Assembly (NCBI GenBank): GCA_014360895.1
Contig: JACIWQ010000002.1
Coordinates: 6,629 to 70,628 of the forward strand
Direction: 5' to 3'
From: Thermoflexales bacterium
Lineage (GTDB): Bacteria > Chloroflexota > Anaerolineae > B4-G1 > DUEL01
Length of the DNA: 64,000 nucleotides
Below are positions 8,346 to 35,193 of the stretch, piece by piece (position 1 is the first letter of the stretch; every line of letters begins with the position of its first letter). The position numbers and the translations under genes are program-made. Below the pieces are notes generated by a model that made no database searches, was not told the origin of the DNA, and saw only the letters and a list, made by a program, of their open reading frames with translations.

Positions 8346-8640
8346 CATATCGGGTCTGCGCCACCGCAGCATAGGCCGCCAGGCTGGTCTGGGTATAGAC
8401 GAACAGCCCGCGCTACGGCATAAGGTCATTGCGAGGGCACGGAGTGCCCGAAGGGTCATTGCGAGGGCGCGCAGCGCCCGAGGCAATCCCCAGAAGCGAC
8501 GGGGGGATTGCTTCGCTGCCCTGACGGGCGGCTCGCAATGACGTAAGGTGACGGTCACCTTCAGTGACTGTCACCTTGTTCGCCCCTTCGGGCTCGCAAT
8601 GACCTTTGCGAAGGGGTTTGTGGGGAGCGCACCGGCCCCT
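8346..8640. repeat. Composite repeat: family D unit, then palindromic family A elements (GGTCATTGCGAG...CTCGCAATGACC) with an embedded family B palindrome (GGTGACGGTCACC/AGTGACTGTCACC)
   Basis: The same units recur at 15968, 16750, 19867, 45758-45872 and 62788. ORFs in the track here are spurious. Confidence 0.7.
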
Positions 8641-9571: not shown

Positions 9572-9612
9572 ATGGGTATACGGTAAATTGGTATACTGGT
9601 CAGTGGTCAGTG

Positions 9613-9675
<63 letters not shown>

Positions 9676-9690
9676 CAGGAGCGCTATAGC

Positions 9691-10806
9691 GTGAATAGAC
9701 GATTATCCCTTCTCACGTTCGGCCTGGCCCTCACCGTCACCCTCCTCCTCGCCGGTTGCTCCGGCGGCGTCCGCGCCACCACCTGGACCACCCTGATTCT
9801 CCACAACGGGACCCTCTACGTGGCGGACCTGGAACAGGTCCGGGCGCTGGACACGGAGACCGGCCAGCAGACCTGGGCATTTCCCCCCACGCCGGACCTG
9901 CGCCAGTACGGCCCTTTCTACACGGTCACCCTGCTGAATGACGAACTGCTCCTGGTGACCTCCTACGAACGGACCGGAGGGGGCCTCTTTGCCCGCTCCC
10001 GGGGGGTCCTGCGCGCCCTTTCCCTGAACGGCGGTCAGATGGCCTGGCCTCAACCCTTCACGGCGGACGGGGAATTCATCGCTCCCGGCGCGGCCGGAGA
10101 CGGCATCTTCGTCATCGGCAACAGCGACGGCAACGTCTACGGCCTGCGCATAGAGGACGGCGCGTTGCTCTGGCAGTATCCCACCCGGAGCCGGGTCTGG
10201 GCGACGCCGCTGGTCATCTCGGACACCGTCTACATCGCTTCGCTGGACCATCACCTCTACGCGCTGGACCTGGAGAGCGGCGCGCTGCGCTGGCAGTTCG
10301 GGGCCGGCGGCGCGATGGCCGACCGCCCCCTCGTCCTGACCGATACCCTCTACGTCGGTTCCTTTGACCACAACCTCTATGCTCTGCGGCTGGCGGACGG
10401 CACCGAAATCTGGCGTTTTACCGGCGCCAACTGGTTCTGGGGCACCCCGGCCAGCGACGGCACCCGCCTTTACGCCGCCGATGTGGACGGCAATGTCTAC
10501 GCGCTGGACGCCGCCACCGGGCAGGAAATCTGGCGCAGCCAGGTGCAGGGGACCGTCCGGCTGGGGCCGGCGCTGAGCCCGGACGGGAAGCGGTTGCTGG
10601 TCGCCAGCGAGAACGGCACCCTCTTCGGCCTGGATACCGCCGACGGCTTCGTCCTCTGGCAGCAGGCCGGGCAGGGACAACTGGGCTCCATGGCCATCGG
10701 TGGCGAGAAGGTCTACGTGACCCGCATCAACGCCCCTCAGCGGGTGCAGGCTTTCTACGTGGAGAACGGCCGCCCGGTCTGGTCCTATCCGGCGCAGCAA
10801 CAGTAA
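9691..10806 (+). CDS. PQQ-like beta-propeller repeat lipoprotein (BamB-like)
   Basis: The lipoprotein signal LLLAGCSGG follows a GTG start with an AGGAG RBS. Repeated xLYAxDxxxGxxxWxF PQQ-type blades are present. The ORF-track N-terminus (MVILSFCHS repeated) is translation of the octamer array and is discounted. Confidence 0.7.
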   Translation: MNRRLSLLTFGLALTVTLLLAGCSGGVRATTWTTLILHNGTLYVADLEQVRALDTETGQQTWAFPPTPDLRQYGPFYTVTLLNDELLLVTSYERTGGGLFARSRGVLRALSLNGGQMAWPQPFTADGEFIAPGAAGDGIFVIGNSDGNVYGLRIEDGALLWQYPTRSRVWATPLVISDTVYIASLDHHLYALDLESGALRWQFGAGGAMADRPLVLTDTLYVGSFDHNLYALRLADGTEIWRFTGANWFWGTPASDGTRLYAADVDGNVYALDAATGQEIWRSQVQGTVRLGPALSPDGKRLLVASENGTLFGLDTADGFVLWQQAGQGQLGSMAIGGEKVYVTRINAPQRVQAFYVENGRPVWSYPAQQQ

Positions 10807-16749: not shown

Positions 16750-17112
16750 GGTCATTGCGAGCCCGAAGGGCGAAGCAACCGGTCATTGCGAGCCCGAAGG
16801 GCGAAGCAACCGGTCACTGCGAGCCCCGAAGGGCGAAGCAACCGGTCATTGCGAGCCCGAAGGGCGAAGCAACCGGTCATTGCGAGCCCGAAGGGCGAAG
16901 CAATCGGTCATTGCGAGCCCGAAGGGCGAAGCAACCGGTCATTGCGAGCCCGAAGGGCGAAGCAACCAGTCATTGCGAGCCCGAAGGGCGAAGCAACCGG
17001 TCATTGCGAGCCCGAAGGGCGAAGCAATCTCCTCGTCGCTTCTGGGGATTGCTTCGGGGCTATCGCCCCTCGCAATGACCCTTCGGGCACTCTGTGCCCT
17101 CACAATGACCCG
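16750..17112. repeat. Tandem array of about 9 copies of a 31-bp unit (GGTCATTGCGAGCCCGAAGGGCGAAGCAACC), derived from the family A left arm and terminated by the right arm
   Basis: Strict 31-bp periodicity with no unique spacers, so this is a satellite-like expansion and not a CRISPR. ORFs across it are spurious. Confidence 0.8.
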
Positions 17113-19866: not shown

Positions 19867-20150
19867 GTCATTGCGAGGGAGCACAGCGCCCGAGGGGTCA
19901 TTGCGAGGGCGCGAAGCGCCCGAAGCAATCCCCAGAAGCGACGAGGAGATTGCTTCGCCCTTCGGGCTCGCAATGACTGTCCGGGGTCATTGCGAGGGCG
20001 TGCAGTGCCCGAAGCAATCCCCAGAAGCGACGAGGAGATTGCTTCGCCCTTCGGGCTCGCAATGACTGTCTGGGGTCATTGCGAGGGCGTGCAGCGCCCG
20101 AAGCAATCCCCATCCAGTGGAGACTGCTTCGCTCCGCTCGCAGTGAATAG
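19867..20150. repeat. Three or more tandem family A palindromic elements
   Basis: Repeated GGTCATTGCGAGGGCG..GCCCGAAGCAATCCCCAGAAGCGACGAGGAGATTGCTTCGCCCTTCGGGCTCGCAATGAC units. ORFs in the track here are spurious. Confidence 0.75.
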
Positions 20151-29579: not shown

Positions 29580-30782
29580 CTATTTTGCATGTGCCGGTGT
29601 CCACTCCTCTATGAGAACCTCCAGGATCGGTGCAGCCTGGTAGGTTTTGCCGTAAGAGCCGTCGCTGGCAGGGGTCAAGACACCCACTTGGATAAGTTTC
29701 TGCACAATTTGTTTGGCGCCGGGGTAGGAAATCCCCAGCCTGCGTTGAACCTCCGGAATGGTCAGGACCGGAGTATTGAAGAGTTCATCTACCAAGCGCA
29801 GCGTCAGGGCAGAGGTATGTGCATGAATCAGTCGCTTGCGCCACTCCTCCCGCAGGTCCTGCAACCTCCGGGCCCGCGCGACGGCGTCCCGGGCCTGTTC
29901 CGCCACGCCGCGCAGGAAGAAGAGGACCCAGTCCCTCCAGGCCCCGCGCTCGCTGACGGCCAGGAGCAGGTCGTAGTATGCCTGGCGGTGGCGGTAAAAG
30001 TAAGCGCTCAGGTAAAGCAGGGGCAGCGGCAGCAGTCCCCACTGAATGAGCAGAAGAGAAATCAGCAACCGGCCGATGCGCCCGTTGCCGTCCACAAAAG
30101 GATGGATGGCCTCAAACTGATAGTGGATGAGGGCCAGGCGCACCAGCGGTGGATAAGGGTCATCGTTCCTGTGCAGATACGCCTCCAGTGCATTGAGGGC
30201 TTCCTGCATCTGCGGCACCGGTGGTGGGACGAAAACGGCGTCCTTCAACGTACACCCAGGTGGCCCGATCCAGTTCTGGGTGCGGCGAAACTCGCCGGGA
30301 GTGGTATGCTCTCCTCTCACTCCTGCCAACAGACGCTCGTGCAACTCGCGGAGGAGGCGCAGGCTGACCGGCAAGTTCTTCAGTCGTTCCAGCCCGTATT
30401 CCAGAGCGTTCACGTAGTTCAGCACCTCCCGCACGTCCGCTTCGGACGGGGGCACCTCTATGCCGGGCAAAGGCAACTGTCGGGCTTCGTAGGCATAGAG
30501 ATCGGTAATGTCAGCCTGGGTGCCCTCAATGCGGGAGGAGAGGACGGCCTCCCGACGGATAAAAGGCCCGATGAGCAGGTGGGGATTTGGTATCGTCCGC
30601 CCCAGACCGGAGAGTTCCGCCAGTGCACGGTCGGCCTCGGAGAGCGCTTTCGCCAGAGGCCAATCTATCCGCAATTTGGGGGGCAGAGGGTTGGGAACGA
30701 AGGCCCAATATGCGGCCTCGCCTTCTCCCACCCGAATCACCTGCCCGGCCGTGCTGTTGCGAAACCGTTGGGGGTCCATCAC
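29580..30782 (-). CDS. Fic/DOC-family protein with a C-terminal winged-helix domain
   Basis: The Fic motif HPFVDGNGRIGR is present. Confidence 0.8.
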   Translation of the reverse strand: MMDPQRFRNSTAGQVIRVGEGEAAYWAFVPNPLPPKLRIDWPLAKALSEADRALAELSGLGRTIPNPHLLIGPFIRREAVLSSRIEGTQADITDLYAYEARQLPLPGIEVPPSEADVREVLNYVNALEYGLERLKNLPVSLRLLRELHERLLAGVRGEHTTPGEFRRTQNWIGPPGCTLKDAVFVPPPVPQMQEALNALEAYLHRNDDPYPPLVRLALIHYQFEAIHPFVDGNGRIGRLLISLLLIQWGLLPLPLLYLSAYFYRHRQAYYDLLLAVSERGAWRDWVLFFLRGVAEQARDAVARARRLQDLREEWRKRLIHAHTSALTLRLVDELFNTPVLTIPEVQRRLGISYPGAKQIVQKLIQVGVLTPASDGSYGKTYQAAPILEVLIEEWTPAHAK

Positions 30783-30785
30783 TCC

Positions 30786-31043
30786 CTACGGGTCCAGGCG
30801 ATATTGTGGGTCATCTGGGGCGCTGTTCCGCAGCCACGCCGGTACATCCTCCCCATCCGGGTTCAACCAAAGAATAGCGGAAAGGTCGGGAATCTGTTTA
30901 GCAAGCTGAGAAAACTGCTTCCGTTGTTTTTCGTTCAAGGAAATCACCCGGCGGTCAGTTTCCAGAGCAAGTTCTACCAGGAAGAGGTCTTTTTCTATCT
31001 GCTTGGTCCCTGGCCATAATGCCTGCGCCTGGGCGTTCACCAT
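30786..31043 (-). CDS. Small hypothetical protein immediately upstream of fic (possibly co-transcribed)
   Basis: 85 aa ORF whose stop is 3 nt before the fic start. The region is AT-richer than its flanks. Confidence 0.35.
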   Translation of the reverse strand: MVNAQAQALWPGTKQIEKDLFLVELALETDRRVISLNEKQRKQFSQLAKQIPDLSAILWLNPDGEDVPAWLRNSAPDDPQYRLDP

Positions 31044-31058
31044 ACGCCATGTGCAACA

Positions 31059-31618
31059 TTATTTCACAGAGACCAACCCTGCGAAATCCAGGGGTGGACG
31101 TCCGTGCTGTAAATTCAACCACACCCAAACGGTGTGAGCCAAGATCTTGCGGAACCATTTCGCCAAAAGTGTCCACCCCTTGCGCACCCGCATAGATTGT
31201 ACCTTGAAACGCTCCGTCAGCGGGCTAATCACGGTCTCAATTTGCTGCCGAATGCCCTTTAGAGCCTGGGGAAGCACAAAACGCGTGGGTCGCATATTGC
31301 TTCGCAGGGGGTCAACAGGTACAGGTCGTACTCCTGTTGAAATTTCTCCTGCGTCTTGTCCCCCAGGCAGGCGGCGTGGTTAGGCATTCCCGCCACCAGC
31401 ACTTCGGTCAATTGGCTGTCGTGAGAGTTGGCCGGGAGCACACAGGCGGGTACAATCATTCCATTGGAAGCAATCCGCAGCCCGCCCTTGAAGCCGAAGT
31501 AAAACTCATCCTTACTGGCGATGAAGAGCTCTTCGTCCAACATCGCGGCATACCTCCAGGATAGTTTACCTGGAAGTATACCCCAAAAATCAAGTTGCAC
31601 ATGACGTAGGTTGCACAT
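31059..31618 (-). pseudogene. Degraded transposase remnant (IS4/IS5-like C-terminal region) split over two overlapping frames
   Basis: Two overlapping ORFs, 31059-31295 and 31259-31618. An R..IE......K-like C-terminal transposase motif (IRQQIETVISPLTERFK) is present. The composition is AT-richer. The family assignment is tentative. Confidence 0.3.
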
Positions 31619-31626
31619 GACGTAAA

Positions 31627-33678
31627 TTATCTCTCCGGCTCGGGGCGGATCAGCCCGTGCTCTATCTCCTCTTGTAGCAACTTCAGGTCAGCGTCTACCA
31701 TCATTTTGACCAATTCCTCAAAGGAGACGGTGGGCTCCCAACCCAGGACCCGGCGGGCCTTAGAGGGGTCGGCGACCAGCAGGTCCACTTCGGCGGGGCG
31801 CATATAGCGGGGGTCCTGGATGACGTAATCCCGCCAGTCCAGCCCGACGTGGGCGAAGGCGATCTCGCAGAGTTCCCGCACCGAGTGGGTCTGGCCGGTG
31901 CCGACGACGTAGTCATCGGGGGCGGGTTGCTGGAGCATCAACCACATGGCGCGGACGTAGTCCCCGGCGAAGCCCCAGTCCCGGCGGGCATCCAGGTTGC
32001 CCAGCCGCAGTTCCTTCGCCAGTCCCAGTTTGATCTTCGCCACGCCGTAGGAGACCTTGCGAGTGACGAATTCCAGGCCCCGACGGGGGGAGTTATGGAT
32101 CCACCCCTGCCCAACCCCGGCATGGAAAGTGCCGGATTGGGTGGCGAGGTCAAACAGCCAGCCTCTATACGGGACGGGAGTGGTCTGGACGACCTCGGAG
32201 AGCGGACGCCGCAAGTGCTGACCCTTCTGCCCCGGAACCCCAGGGGAGTTGAGATTGATTTGGTAGTAGAGGCGACCGTCCCGCTCTTCCAGGCAGAGGA
32301 TGGCCCGCTGGTCCAGAGTGACCCGGGCTAACCAGTACAACCCGGCGGCCAGGGGGGCAGAGGCCGTTTTGAACCCCTTGAACTCGTACCGGACGGGGGC
32401 CCGCTGCAGGCCATCCCCGGCATTGTACCCCCGCAAAAAGGCCAGCCGGGCCTCCGGTCCGGCGTTCAGCACCCGTTGGGGAATCCGTTTGTGGCCGGAA
32501 CGGGTGTAGATGGTGCTTCGGATATAGCGGCCGTACTCGTTGGCCCCCGGAAGGTACAACTGACAGACCGGCTCTCCTCCCTCAAATCCACTGGGGTGTA
32601 CGGAGAACCGACTGCGGCAGCCGATCACCTGCCGGGCCACTTCCGCCACCTGTTCCAGAAACTGGACATCCTGACTGGTAATCTGGATTTTTCCCTCCTC
32701 GCTGATATATCCATCGGCCACGATGACGCCCAGCAGCCATGCCTCTGCTTCGGTCATCTGAATGGCATTGGTCGGCGGGGGGAGTTCTATCAGGGCCAGA
32801 TGGTCCCCGGGGCGCACCTCCTCCGTCCGTCGGGAAGAGGGCCGGCCGTTTTCTCCAACGAATACCTGATGGTCTGCGGTGGTGTGATAGACGGCCCCCC
32901 GAGCGGCCACGCGGTACACCTCTTTGTTCAGTTTGCGCTCAAAGCCGTTCCAGGTCGCCGTCATACAGGTGACCGGTGTCCATCCGCCCGCATCCCATAC
33001 TTCCAGGGGGTCGTCCGGGTCCACCTCGGTGGTGAAGCGGGTGGCGGTGTGGGGTTCGGTCCGGTGAGGAACAACATCCTCTATGGGCAGGATGTCTATC
33101 AGGCCATCCCGCCGGATAATCACCGGGGTCTCGCCTGTCACGCATTCGTGGTTGAACAGGATGCCGGAGACCGCATAGATACCGAAAGACTCCCGGTAGT
33201 TGACCGTGATCCAGTGGCCGTAGACCTTGGCCACTCCGTAGGGGCTGCGGGGGTAGAAGGGGGTCAGTTCGTTCTGGGGGACCTCCCGGACCTTGCCGAA
33301 CATCTCTGACGAACTGGCCTGATAGAAACGGATGCTGGGGTCTACGGTGCGGATAGCTTCCAGCATTCGGGTGACCCCCAGCGCGGTGACCTCGCCGGTG
33401 AAGACCGGTTGCTCCCACGAGGTGGGGACGAAGGACTGGGCGGCCAGGTTGTAGACCTCGTCTGGCTCGTATTCCCGCAGGATGGAGATGAGAGACCCCT
33501 GGTCCAGCAGGTCGCCGGAGACCAGGGTGATTTTGTCCTGGATGTGCTGGATGCGGGAGAAGTTGACCGTGCTGGTGCGGCGCACCATGCCGATGACTTC
33601 GTACCCTTTCTCCAGCAAAAATTCCGCCAGATACGAACCGTCCTGTCCGGTGATACCGGTGATTAAGGCTCGGGGCAT
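31627..33678 (-). CDS. gmd: GDP-mannose 4,6-dehydratase interrupted by an intein
   Basis: Exteins match Gmd ([25 protein letters not shown]...GILFNHE // [12 protein letters not shown]...). The start was moved to ATG 33678, which has an AGGAGG RBS. Confidence 0.85.
32092..33144 (-). mobile_element. Intein (351 aa) with a LAGLIDADG homing-endonuclease domain, inserted in gmd between NHE and SPRRG
   Basis: N-terminal Cys directly after LFNHE. Two LAGLIDADG blocks ([25 protein letters not shown]). C-terminal HN followed by the extein Ser. Confidence 0.8.
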
Positions 33679-33691
33679 TGTACCTCCTAAC

Positions 33692-33723
33692 GCAAGTTGG
33701 CAAGTTGGCAAGTTGGCAAGTTA
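33692..33723. repeat. Tandem octamer (CAAGTTGG) x4
   Basis: Perfect tandem copies that are the reverse complement of the octamers at 34191-34254. Confidence 0.8.
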
Positions 33724-34140
33724 TGATTGGCGACGGTAGCGGCGCTGGCGCTCAATGTTGGGGGCCAGCATAGCGATGATTTCATCCAGAAGGGCCAGGC
33801 GGTGTTCCAGCACCTCGCGAGGGAGCAGGTGGTGGGCGCGGTAGTACCACCCCCGGCTTTCCCGCGCGGAGCCTATAGCAATCCGCAAGAAGTAAGAGAA
33901 CTCCTTGCCATATCCCCGACCGTATCCTTCTTCAATGTTAGCGCAAATAGAACCCGCGCTGCGAATTAATTGCTCCGCAATGGCCCGCCCTCGGGGGTCT
34001 CTGATCAGAATCGCGCAGTCCTGCCACGCCAGTTCAAAAAGGTATAAGGCCTTCGGATAAACCTGAAATCTCCAGAGCGGGTCCTGGCAGATACTCTGCG
34101 GCACCGTCCCGGCCCATTCCTCAAAGGTGATCCACTTCAT
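33721..34140 (-). CDS. Four-helix-bundle protein (TIGR02436 family)
   Basis: ...AIGSARESRGWYYRA... is typical of the family. The start was moved to ATG 34140, which has a GGGAGGG RBS. Confidence 0.7.
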   Translation of the reverse strand: MKWITFEEWAGTVPQSICQDPLWRFQVYPKALYLFELAWQDCAILIRDPRGRAIAEQLIRSAGSICANIEEGYGRGYGKEFSYFLRIAIGSARESRGWYYRAHHLLPREVLEHRLALLDEIIAMLAPNIERQRRYRRQS

Positions 34141-34190
34141 GCTTCCCTCCCAATGCATCTTGGTTATCAACCTGTCCCCTTGCTCCTGTG

Positions 34191-34254
34191 CCGACTTGCT
34201 CACTTGCCGACTTGCTCACTTGCCGACTTGCCCACTTGCCGACTTGCCCACTTG
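34191..34254. repeat. Tandem 16-mer (CCGACTTGCYCACTTG) x4, equivalent to 8 octamers of CCRACTTG-type
   Basis: It overlaps the 3' end of the rmd-like gene and encodes its odd tail ...GKSASGQVGK. Confidence 0.8.
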
Positions 34255-35193
34255 CCCTCTCCAGTACTCTAAGGTCTCTCTCAACGTCTGCTCAAGGGGA
34301 ATCTGCGGCTCCCAGCTGGTGCGGCGGCGGAACTTCTCCGCGCTCCCGTAGATGACGGGCACGTCGGCGGGGCGGTAGAGGGCCGGGTCCACCTCCACCT
34401 GGACCTCCGCGTCGGTGAAGGAAAGGAGCGTCTCCAGGATCCAGCGGATGGAGCGGGCCACGCCGGAAGCTAGATTGTAGACCTCCCCGGACTCGGCCTC
34501 CGTCGCCGCCAGGTAGTAGGCCCGGACGATGTCCCGGACGTCGGTGAAATCCCGCGCCACATCCAGATTCCCCACCCGCACTACCGGCTCCTGGAGTCCG
34601 GCCTCAATGCGGGCAATCTGTTGGGCGAAGGCCGGGACGACGAAGCGGGGGGACTGCCCCGGCCCGGTGTGGTTAAACGGCCGCAGCCGAACCACGTCCA
34701 TCCCGTAGGCCAGATGGTACTGGAGCCCCAGGAAATCCTGCCCCACTTTGCTGACCGCATAGGGGTTGACCGGGCGCAAGGGGCTCTCCTCGGTGAGGGG
34801 GAGGTCTTCCGGCCGGGGCCAGCCGTACTCCTCGTTGGACCCGATGACAATGACTCGCGACCGGCCTCCCGCTCGCCGTACCCCCTCCAGGACGTTCAAC
34901 TGGGCCCGCAGGTTGTTCTCTATCGTCTCCCACGGGTCGGCGAAGGAGGTGGGGACGAAAGATTGGGCCGCCAGGTGAAAAATGACGTCGGGGCGGAAAT
35001 CCCCCAGCAATTCGGCCACCCGCGCTCCGTCCCGCAGGTCCAGGTGGACCAGGGAGAGGCACGACTGGGGCCGGGGGTCCGCCACCGGCTCCGGATAGAC
35101 CGTCCCCAAAAGCTCCCAGTCCGGTTGGGTCAGGAGATAGTCGCAGAGATAACGTCCGACGAACCCCCCGGCTCCGGTAATCAGCGCGCGCAT
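34216..35193 (-). CDS. GDP-4-keto-6-deoxy-D-mannose reductase-like SDR (Rmd/GDP-sugar epimerase-reductase family)
   Basis: MRALITGAGGFVGRYL with YxxxK. It is adjacent to gmd, which suggests GDP-deoxyhexose synthesis. Confidence 0.65.
   Translation of the reverse strand: MRALITGAGGFVGRYLCDYLLTQPDWELLGTVYPEPVADPRPQSCLSLVHLDLRDGARVAELLGDFRPDVIFHLAAQSFVPTSFADPWETIENNLRAQLNVLEGVRRAGGRSRVIVIGSNEEYGWPRPEDLPLTEESPLRPVNPYAVSKVGQDFLGLQYHLAYGMDVVRLRPFNHTGPGQSPRFVVPAFAQQIARIEAGLQEPVVRVGNLDVARDFTDVRDIVRAYYLAATEAESGEVYNLASGVARSIRWILETLLSFTDAEVQVEVDPALYRPADVPVIYGSAEKFRRRTSWEPQIPLEQTLRETLEYWRGQVGKSASGQVGK

Follow-up and report, generated by a model that had tools for sequence, protein, structure and literature searches.

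A probable full-length LAGLIDADG intein at the invariant NHE/SPRRG motif of GDP-mannose 4,6-dehydratase in a Thermoflexales bacterium

We analysed a 64,000-nucleotide stretch of DNA from a Thermoflexales bacterium (Chloroflexota; assembly GCA_014360895.1, contig JACIWQ010000002.1, positions 6,629 to 70,628), hereafter called the window, in which the gmd gene for GDP-mannose 4,6-dehydratase (Gmd) carries an in-frame insert that is very probably an intein. An open frame ran without interruption on the minus strand from 33711 to 31627. Its start in the list of open reading frames (ORFs), TTG 33711, was rejected in favour of ATG 33678 (MPRALITG), which has AGGAGG 4 nt before it and lies at the position where close relatives start their gmd. 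Read from this ATG to the stop at 31627, the precursor has 683 amino acids (aa), and an identical protein has been called in a public Logan assembly (run SRR11866724). The gene and its parts are as follows, in window coordinates:

31627..33678, minus strand: gmd precursor coding sequence, N-extein, intein and C-extein in one frame (continuous ORF, 683 aa plus stop; TIGR01472 439 bits as two stretches)
33683..33688, minus strand: Shine-Dalgarno AGGAGG, 4 nt upstream of ATG 33678 (read from the sequence; GGAGG at the same place in close relatives)
33145..33678, minus strand: N-extein, 178 aa, the Rossmann half of Gmd, ending ...ILFNHE (1RPN residues 16-194; Pfam GDP_Man_Dehyd positions 1-187)
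32092..33144, minus strand: putative intein, 351 aa, Cys1 ... His350-Asn351 (motifs, family profile, predicted structure)
31630..32091, minus strand: C-extein, 154 aa, starting SPRRGLEF... (aligns to 1RPN residues 192-333)

A preliminary description of this DNA had placed a 351-aa insert at 32092-33144, exactly between the NHE and SPRRG residues of Gmd, with Cys first, His-Asn last and the extein Ser next. Translation reproduced these coordinates and residues exactly: the reverse complement of 32092..33144 encodes 351 residues ending in GVGQGWIHN, flanked by ...SGILFNHE and SPRRGLEF.... The 332-aa sequence without the insert matched the TIGR01472 gmd equivalog over model positions 3-341 of 342 with 454.7 bits (cutoff 415) and covered positions 1-332 of 332 of Pfam GDP_Man_Dehyd, and the Gmd structures in the Protein Data Bank (PDB) matched the host protein at E-values of 1e-124 to 1e-98. 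When the precursor was compared with Pseudomonas aeruginosa Gmd (PDB 1RPN), it aligned in two abutting pieces (query 3-179 with chain 16-194, and query 528-669 with chain 192-333), and no alignment running continuously through the insert was found. The gene is very probably a functional gmd, neither a fusion nor a pseudogene. The window contains neither another gmd nor another copy of the intein; it holds only three distant paralogues of the short-chain dehydrogenase/reductase (SDR) family (27-32% identity). Other ORFs that overlap the gene in other frames or on the opposite strand (32476..33309 plus, 31849..32331 plus and 32939..33703 minus) had no Pfam match and were judged spurious, in GC-rich DNA.

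The Hint-domain blocks A, B, F and G, whose absence would have spoken against the preliminary description, were all present in the insert and conserved in the family of homologous inteins described below:

33115..33144, minus strand: intein block A (C1 VTGETPVII), N-terminal nucleophile; C1 in 61/62 family members, Ser in 1/62; T6, P7 and V8 invariant or nearly so
32869..32880, minus strand: intein block B, TxxH (T89-A-D-H92); T89 and H92 invariant in a 34-sequence alignment
32116..32160, minus strand: intein block F (WLFDLAT..GTFHAG; D332, H341); block F of PI-PkoII and that of TliVMA align with it
32089..32115, minus strand: intein block G (VGQGWIHN) plus Ser+1 of the C-extein; H350 and N351 invariant in the 34 sequences, Ser+1 in 62/62 precursors

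In the same 34-sequence alignment, W329, F331, D332, T335, T339 and F340 of block F were invariant, and H341 and C1 were each at least 90% conserved. A PDB search with the single sequence gave weak matches only, to the Pab PolII intein, PI-PkoII and I-Tsp061I. The profile of 34 homologues gave six matches with E-values of 6.5e-5 to 2.7e-3, all of them inteins, and sub-threshold NCBIfam matches coincided with the intein segments of DnaB, GyrA, ribonucleotide reductase (RNR) and Tes models. An AlphaFold2 (AF2) model of the intein, built from a 32-sequence alignment, had a mean predicted local distance difference test (pLDDT) score of 92.8 and a predicted template modelling (pTM) score of 0.92. 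Its best Foldseek matches in the PDB were TliVMA, PhoVMA, PI-PfuI, PI-PkoII and PI-SceI (E-values 1e-20 to 1e-7), and the splicing part of the model also matched mini-inteins (TFIIB, PolII and KlbA types). The insert is thus predicted to have a HINT fold. We consider it highly likely that the precursor splices, because the insert breaks an invariant motif in an enzyme whose two exteins are under purifying selection, and because all the catalytic residues have been conserved.

The middle of the insert corresponds to an endonuclease domain. Both LAGLIDADG strings of the preliminary description were found, at residues 137-148 and 234-246, and the profile search that it had called for gave 27.5 bits for the insert alone with Pfam LAGLIDADG_3 at motif 1, above the gathering score of 22.5. 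The features of this domain are:

32197..32769, minus strand: LAGLIDADG homing-endonuclease domain, approximately residues 126-316 (AF2 secondary structure, Foldseek, and the ratio of nonsynonymous to synonymous substitution rates, dN/dS, of 0.064)
32701..32736, minus strand: LAGLIDADG motif 1 (D144), intein residues 137-148; helix 132-144 ends at D144, and LAGLIDADG_3 covers 135-171
32407..32445, minus strand: LAGLIDADG motif 2 (D244), intein residues 234-246; helix 230-244 ends at D244 and aligns to motif 2 of PI-PkoII

Secondary structure assigned by DSSP on the AF2 model showed an alpha-beta-beta-alpha-beta-beta-alpha arrangement over residues 132-212, and the second half lay over 230-312. 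The middle part of the model matched I-DmoI, I-Tsp061I, I-SceI and I-WcaI in Foldseek over about 185 columns (E-values 1e-6 to 1e-5). The predicted fold is a pseudo-dimeric, single-chain LAGLIDADG fold with two motifs. The blocks, the predicted HINT and LAGLIDADG folds and the gmd equivalog match bear out the earlier proposal of a full-length intein with a homing-endonuclease domain in a sugar-nucleotide enzyme.

When the intein was searched against 5.8 billion proteins, 65 matches were obtained, all in Gmd. A scan of one genome per species in GTDB r232 found 69 loci with a homologue of the intein at this position of gmd; the number is a minimum, since the patterns used for scanning were derived from the window sequence alone. 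Single-frame, complete precursors were present at 62 of these loci, in hosts from at least nine phyla (host names as in the public record titles), and all 62 showed the junction FNHE / C(or S)...HN / SPRRG. The hosts in Chloroflexota included Anaerolineae, Thermoflexales, Caldilineales, Ktedonobacterales and Chloroflexaceae; the others included many filamentous or thermophilic Cyanobacteria as well as Armatimonadota, Acidobacteriota, Myxococcota, Planctomycetota, Actinomycetota and Rhodothermales. The nearest relative, with 93% intein identity, was found in an Anaerolineae metagenome-assembled genome (MAG; locus L003), in line with an origin of the window in an Anaerolineae-type Chloroflexota genome. 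Both Gmd subtypes, short and long, were found to carry the intein.

Some more distant or irregular loci were also seen. A Paceibacterota MAG (L070, 2302-4550) has a distant member at the gmd site, 32% identical, which ends in ...VVAN/SPRRG, so that Ala takes the place of the penultimate His, and contains an additional segment resembling a helix-turn-helix (HTH), MSQREIARTSGISRTFIRKL. A 46% identical gmd intein with the junction NHT/C...IHN/SPRRG lies at 2161-4450 of L076 (IMG/VR UViG_3300049215_000519), an 85-kb contig that the database labels as viral. A phage-borne vector for the intein was considered and rejected; the curated phage collection gave distant helicase and RecA inteins only. At L046, L047, L063 and L064 the intein-bearing gmd is split over two or three frames; three of them come from MAGs with low coverage or assembled from long reads, and the four loci are either decaying pseudogenes or assembly errors. 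A 478-aa JGI protein (P0058) carries a 30%-identical intein with intact LAGLIDADG motifs (FFVAEGCV and LRGYNAGDG) at the corresponding site of another SDR (...VHN/TGPRRGDVF...), and the insertion site may be used in a paralogous enzyme family too.

Empty sites were found close to the occupied ones. Anaerolineae MAGs encode an intein-free, 332-aa Gmd with 95-98% aa identity to the spliced extein, in the gene neighbourhood of the relatives (NrtR-type Nudix, solute-binding protein, rmd, gmd, phosphoglucomutase/phosphomannomutase (PGM/PMM) and NurA). One such allele, at L072, was 91.2% identical to the window exteins at the nucleotide level, which places it as near as the intein-bearing relatives (84-93%); presence or absence of the intein is thus polymorphic among close lineages. 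The L072 junction reads ...TTGTTCAACCACGAA/TCACCCCGCCGTGGCCTGGAA..., with TTCAACCACGAA/TCACCCCGCCGT at the centre of its empty site. Among seven close relatives, dN/dS by the Nei-Gojobori method was 0.050 for the N-extein, 0.061 for the N-splicing part, 0.064 for the endonuclease domain, 0.036 for the C-splicing part and 0.110 for the C-extein. The endonuclease domain is under purifying selection and is constrained like the other parts.

The synonymous divergence (dS) of the intein was 0.9-1.25, two to three times that of the exteins (0.30-0.69) and of the adjacent rmd (0.41-0.74) in the same genome pairs. Intein dS was at or below extein dS in 0/1000 bootstraps for five pairs and in 11/1000 for the sixth. 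Across phyla, the inteins were more similar to each other (identity 0.67-0.73) than the exteins were (0.54-0.61); between Oscillatoria (L029) and Pyrinomonadaceae (L023), for example, the identity was 73% for the intein and 56% for the extein. The excess of intein dS, the higher identity of inteins than exteins across phyla and the occupation of both Gmd subtypes favour horizontal movement between gmd alleles, as judged from sequence comparison.

We consider it very probable that the insert is a standard class-1 full-length intein in gmd, located at the invariant NHE/SPRRG motif, that spreads, or once spread, by homing. The 683-aa precursor would be translated as a single chain. The HINT domain would then catalyse an N-S acyl shift at Cys1, helped by T89 and H92 of block B, and the acyl group would move to the hydroxyl of Ser+1 by transesterification. 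Cyclisation of Asn351, helped by H350 and by D332 and H341 of block F, would release the intein, and an O-N shift would join Glu178 to the Ser, giving ...FNHE-SPRRG... in an ordinary, active Gmd of 332 aa. The freed intein would act as a single-chain LAGLIDADG endonuclease with D144 and D244 and would cut intein-free gmd at the FNHE/SPRRG codons. The predicted target in empty alleles is approximately 20-40 bp around TTCAACCACGAA/TC(N)CC(N)CG(N)CG(N)GGCCTGGAA. Repair of the cut allele from an intein-bearing copy would spread the element.

Several observations weigh against this reading. TIGR01445 (intein_Nterm) scored 17.8 bits, under its cutoff of 24.5, and no match at E<=1 was reported for the Pfam Hint/Intein_splicing models or the C-terminal intein model (TIGR01443), so that the HINT assignment rests on the motifs, the family profile and the predicted structure. 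The GC content at third codon positions of the intein is 0.75 (vs. 0.84), and relaxed codon bias could inflate its dS; the high dS could reflect horizontal exchange or, in part, this relaxation. In the endonuclease, an acidic residue has been lost in close relatives (D144N in L001; D244N in L005, L007 and L009), and the clade of Laspinema, Oscillatoria and Phormidium has degenerate motifs and shortened domains. These losses in close relatives and in the cyanobacterial clade indicate that decay of the endonuclease is under way in the family, and the window copy could also be inactive for reasons invisible in its motifs.

The most serious alternative is that the intein is splicing-competent while its endonuclease is dead, so that it would now be passed on by vertical descent as a passenger, retained only because Gmd would be destroyed if splicing were lost, with the endonuclease domain conserved for folding or splicing and not for DNA cleavage. 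The point-inactivated close relatives fit this explanation, as does the Laspinema/Oscillatoria clade, in which the motifs are fully degenerate yet all splicing residues are kept; shortened derivatives exist as well (283 aa in L067, about 246 codons matched in L071), and such a state is what one would expect late in the homing cycle. Across the family, the acidic column is D or E in 44/62 sequences at motif 1 and D in 43/62 at motif 2. However, the window copy retains both D144 and D244, its endonuclease domain is constrained as strongly as the splicing domain, intein-free target alleles coexist in sister lineages, and the inteins are more similar across phyla than their exteins. We give this explanation a substantial chance, somewhat short of even. 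Present-day endonuclease activity of the window copy, judged from its sequence, is about an even bet, with a slight lean towards an active enzyme. The family as a whole shows the pattern of the classical homing cycle, in which an intein invades, becomes fixed, loses its endonuclease by decay and finally disappears.

A further idea is that the intein acts as a conditional switch, gated for example by redox state or temperature, on the first committed step of GDP-6-deoxyhexose synthesis. Cys60 is near-invariant (Ala in L024, Leu in L048) and lies inside a 10-residue block between blocks A and B, where it could serve as a regulatory disulfide partner of the catalytic Cys1. Regulatory disulfides with the catalytic Cys have been described for some other inteins, and hot springs or microbial mats seem to be the source of several of the hosts. 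We regard such a switch as very improbable.

An inserted domain that does not splice, either a bacterial intein-like (BIL) or Hint autoprocessing domain capable of cleavage only, or else a dead gmd pseudogene, would agree with the sub-threshold scores of the curated Hint and intein models and with the frameshifts at L046, L047, L063 and L064. However, the ORF in the window is intact, extein dN/dS is 0.05-0.11, the ligation residues Asn351 and Ser+1 are invariant in 62/62 precursors, and the predicted structure matches true inteins. The site, a strictly conserved motif of an equivalog-level Gmd, is also one where true inteins typically insert, unlike BIL domains. We consider this explanation very unlikely.

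The least credible alternative, a naturally split intein or a genuine internal start, arises from the annotation of homologous genes. At least seven public records (P0003, P0007, P0021, P0023, P0026, P0040 and P0053) begin exactly at M61 inside the intein (MTATWNG...), leaving about 240 upstream in-frame codons, the N-extein plus intein residues 1-60, unannotated. The M61 codon has a GGAGG/GGGTGG-like string upstream, which derives from Gly-Gly-Trp codons, and a 10-residue block of the intein is nearly invariant. The synonymous positions around M61 vary freely, however, which means that only the protein sequence is conserved. At the two loci checked (L001 5287-6000 and L002 5260-6000), the upstream sequence encodes the N-extein and the first 60 intein residues in the same frame without a stop, and the M61 starts are therefore an annotation artefact, not a sign of a split intein. 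With these upstream parts, the free synonymous variation and 62 loci in a single frame, a split intein or internal start has next to no likelihood, and N- and C-parts encoded as separate genes are refuted for the window by its continuous frame.

Non-replicative intein hosts are a minority. The preliminary description had called gmd an uncommon host gene, which holds relative to replication genes but fails as a claim of novelty, given the 69 loci and a gmd intein already known in Thermosynechococcus. A full-length gmd intein containing a homing-endonuclease domain was reported in 2022 in Thermosynechococcus sp. TA-1 / CL-1 and Indian MAGs (PMC9403480); that paper notes the insertion in gmd only, without an analysis of the site, motifs or activity. 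The Thermosynechococcus intein has the same host gene and belongs to the same full-length, endonuclease-containing class. The Thermosynechococcus loci in our set (L042, L044, L047, P0013/P0023) showed 52-57% intein identity and an identical FNHE/C...HN/SPRRG junction, whereas their host belongs to a phylum other than Chloroflexota and has the longer 'SPRRGETF' Gmd instead of the short, 332-aa 'SPRRGLEF' form found here. The window intein is therefore not a new type, since gmd inteins of the same family at the same site had already been reported.

Comparison with structurally characterised inteins showed that TliVMA/PhoVMA (PDB 7QSU, 7QSS, 7QST), PI-PfuI, PI-PkoII and PI-SceI share the HINT domain with a nested single-chain LAGLIDADG domain and the A, B, F and G blocks. 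The template modelling score between these and the predicted gmd intein model was 0.4-0.65 at a sequence identity of 12-18%. Their hosts differ (V-ATPase, RNR, DNA polymerase), and the gmd intein is compact, at 351 aa, without the extra DNA-recognition region of the PI-SceI type. The inteins of UDP-glucose/GDP-mannose dehydrogenase (UDP-GlcDH) in Euryarchaeota likewise lie in an enzyme of nucleotide-sugar metabolism and not in a replication protein (Novikova et al. 2016, Table 2, PMC4760082), and UDP-GlcDH is the sole sugar-nucleotide enzyme in the main tables of that survey. However, UDP-GlcDH is an unrelated enzyme (a COG1004 dehydrogenase as opposed to an SDR dehydratase) with archaeal hosts. 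Phage helicase and RecA inteins, such as the 'intein containing helicase/endonuclease' of Bacillus phage Bp8p-C, showed distant similarity, at 23-30% identity (E-values 5e-8 to 8e-4), over a stretch that runs from block B through LAGLIDADG motif 2 and covers only about 45% of the intein, and have another host gene and site. A literature search for the InBase 'Ndse' inteins found nothing.

The genes next to gmd fit a GDP-6-deoxyhexose locus, and the sequence context suggests a GDP-D-rhamnose pathway. The upstream neighbour is:

34216..35193, minus strand: Rmd-like GDP-6-deoxy-D-lyxo-4-hexulose reductase, in the same orientation as gmd (PDB 2pk3 E 3.5e-83, 6x3b 7.9e-59; syntenic in relatives)

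Between rmd and gmd lies an ORF (33724-34140, minus strand) of the four-helix-bundle / 23S rRNA intervening sequence (IVS) family (PF05635 60.7 bits; TIGR02436). It is bracketed by inverted octamer arrays at window positions 33692-33722 and 34179-34257: on the gene strand, about eight copies of GGCAAGT(G/C) lie upstream of the ORF, overlapping the 3' end of rmd, and about four copies of the complement, (C)AACTTGC(C), lie downstream. The rmd-gmd gap holds the same cassette with similar repeats in L007, no insert in L001 and L006, where rmd abuts gmd, and different cargo in L003, L004, L072 and L075, which is AAA_21-like in the annotated L072 and L075. The gap looks like an insertion hot-spot or the site of a small mobile cassette. 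Synteny is broken downstream of gmd (29580-31624), where the relatives have PGM/PMM and NurA. A 16-bp direct repeat, GTTGCACATGACGTAG, directly follows the gmd stop (31594-31624, 1.9 copies); beyond it are three short ORFs without a Pfam match (31259-31618, 31059-31295 and 30786-31043) and a Fic/DOC-domain protein with a C-terminal winged helix-turn-helix (29580-30782).

Repeats also occur elsewhere in the window. A 31-bp tandem array of GGTCATTGCGAGCCCGAAGGGCGAAGCAACC lies at 16750-17027 (8.9 copies, 96% match), and its units are arranged head to tail with no spacers, so it is not a clustered regularly interspaced short palindromic repeat (CRISPR) array. Related 'GGTCATTGCGAGG...CGAAGCAATC' units are present at 8424-8481 and 19867-20112, one of them an 89-bp unit repeated 2.5 times. 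An ORF on the plus strand (9610..10806) has at its extreme 5' end a perfect octamer array of GTCATTCT (9613-9674, 7.8 copies), which translates as VILSFCHS repeats before what is apparently a signal peptide or beta-propeller protein; this octamer differs from those near gmd. The whole window had zero Rfam matches to structured RNAs at the gathering score.

The window intein leaves the knowledge of inteins unchanged, and its worth lies mostly in correct annotation, as public pipelines often mis-start homologous genes at Met61 and drop the whole N-extein. As a compact Cys1/Ser+1 intein, possibly derived from a thermophile, it is a candidate tool for protein engineering. The family, spread over about nine phyla and two Gmd subtypes, is a clean source of natural data on the homing cycle, with intact, point-inactivated, degenerate and shortened endonucleases together with empty sites.

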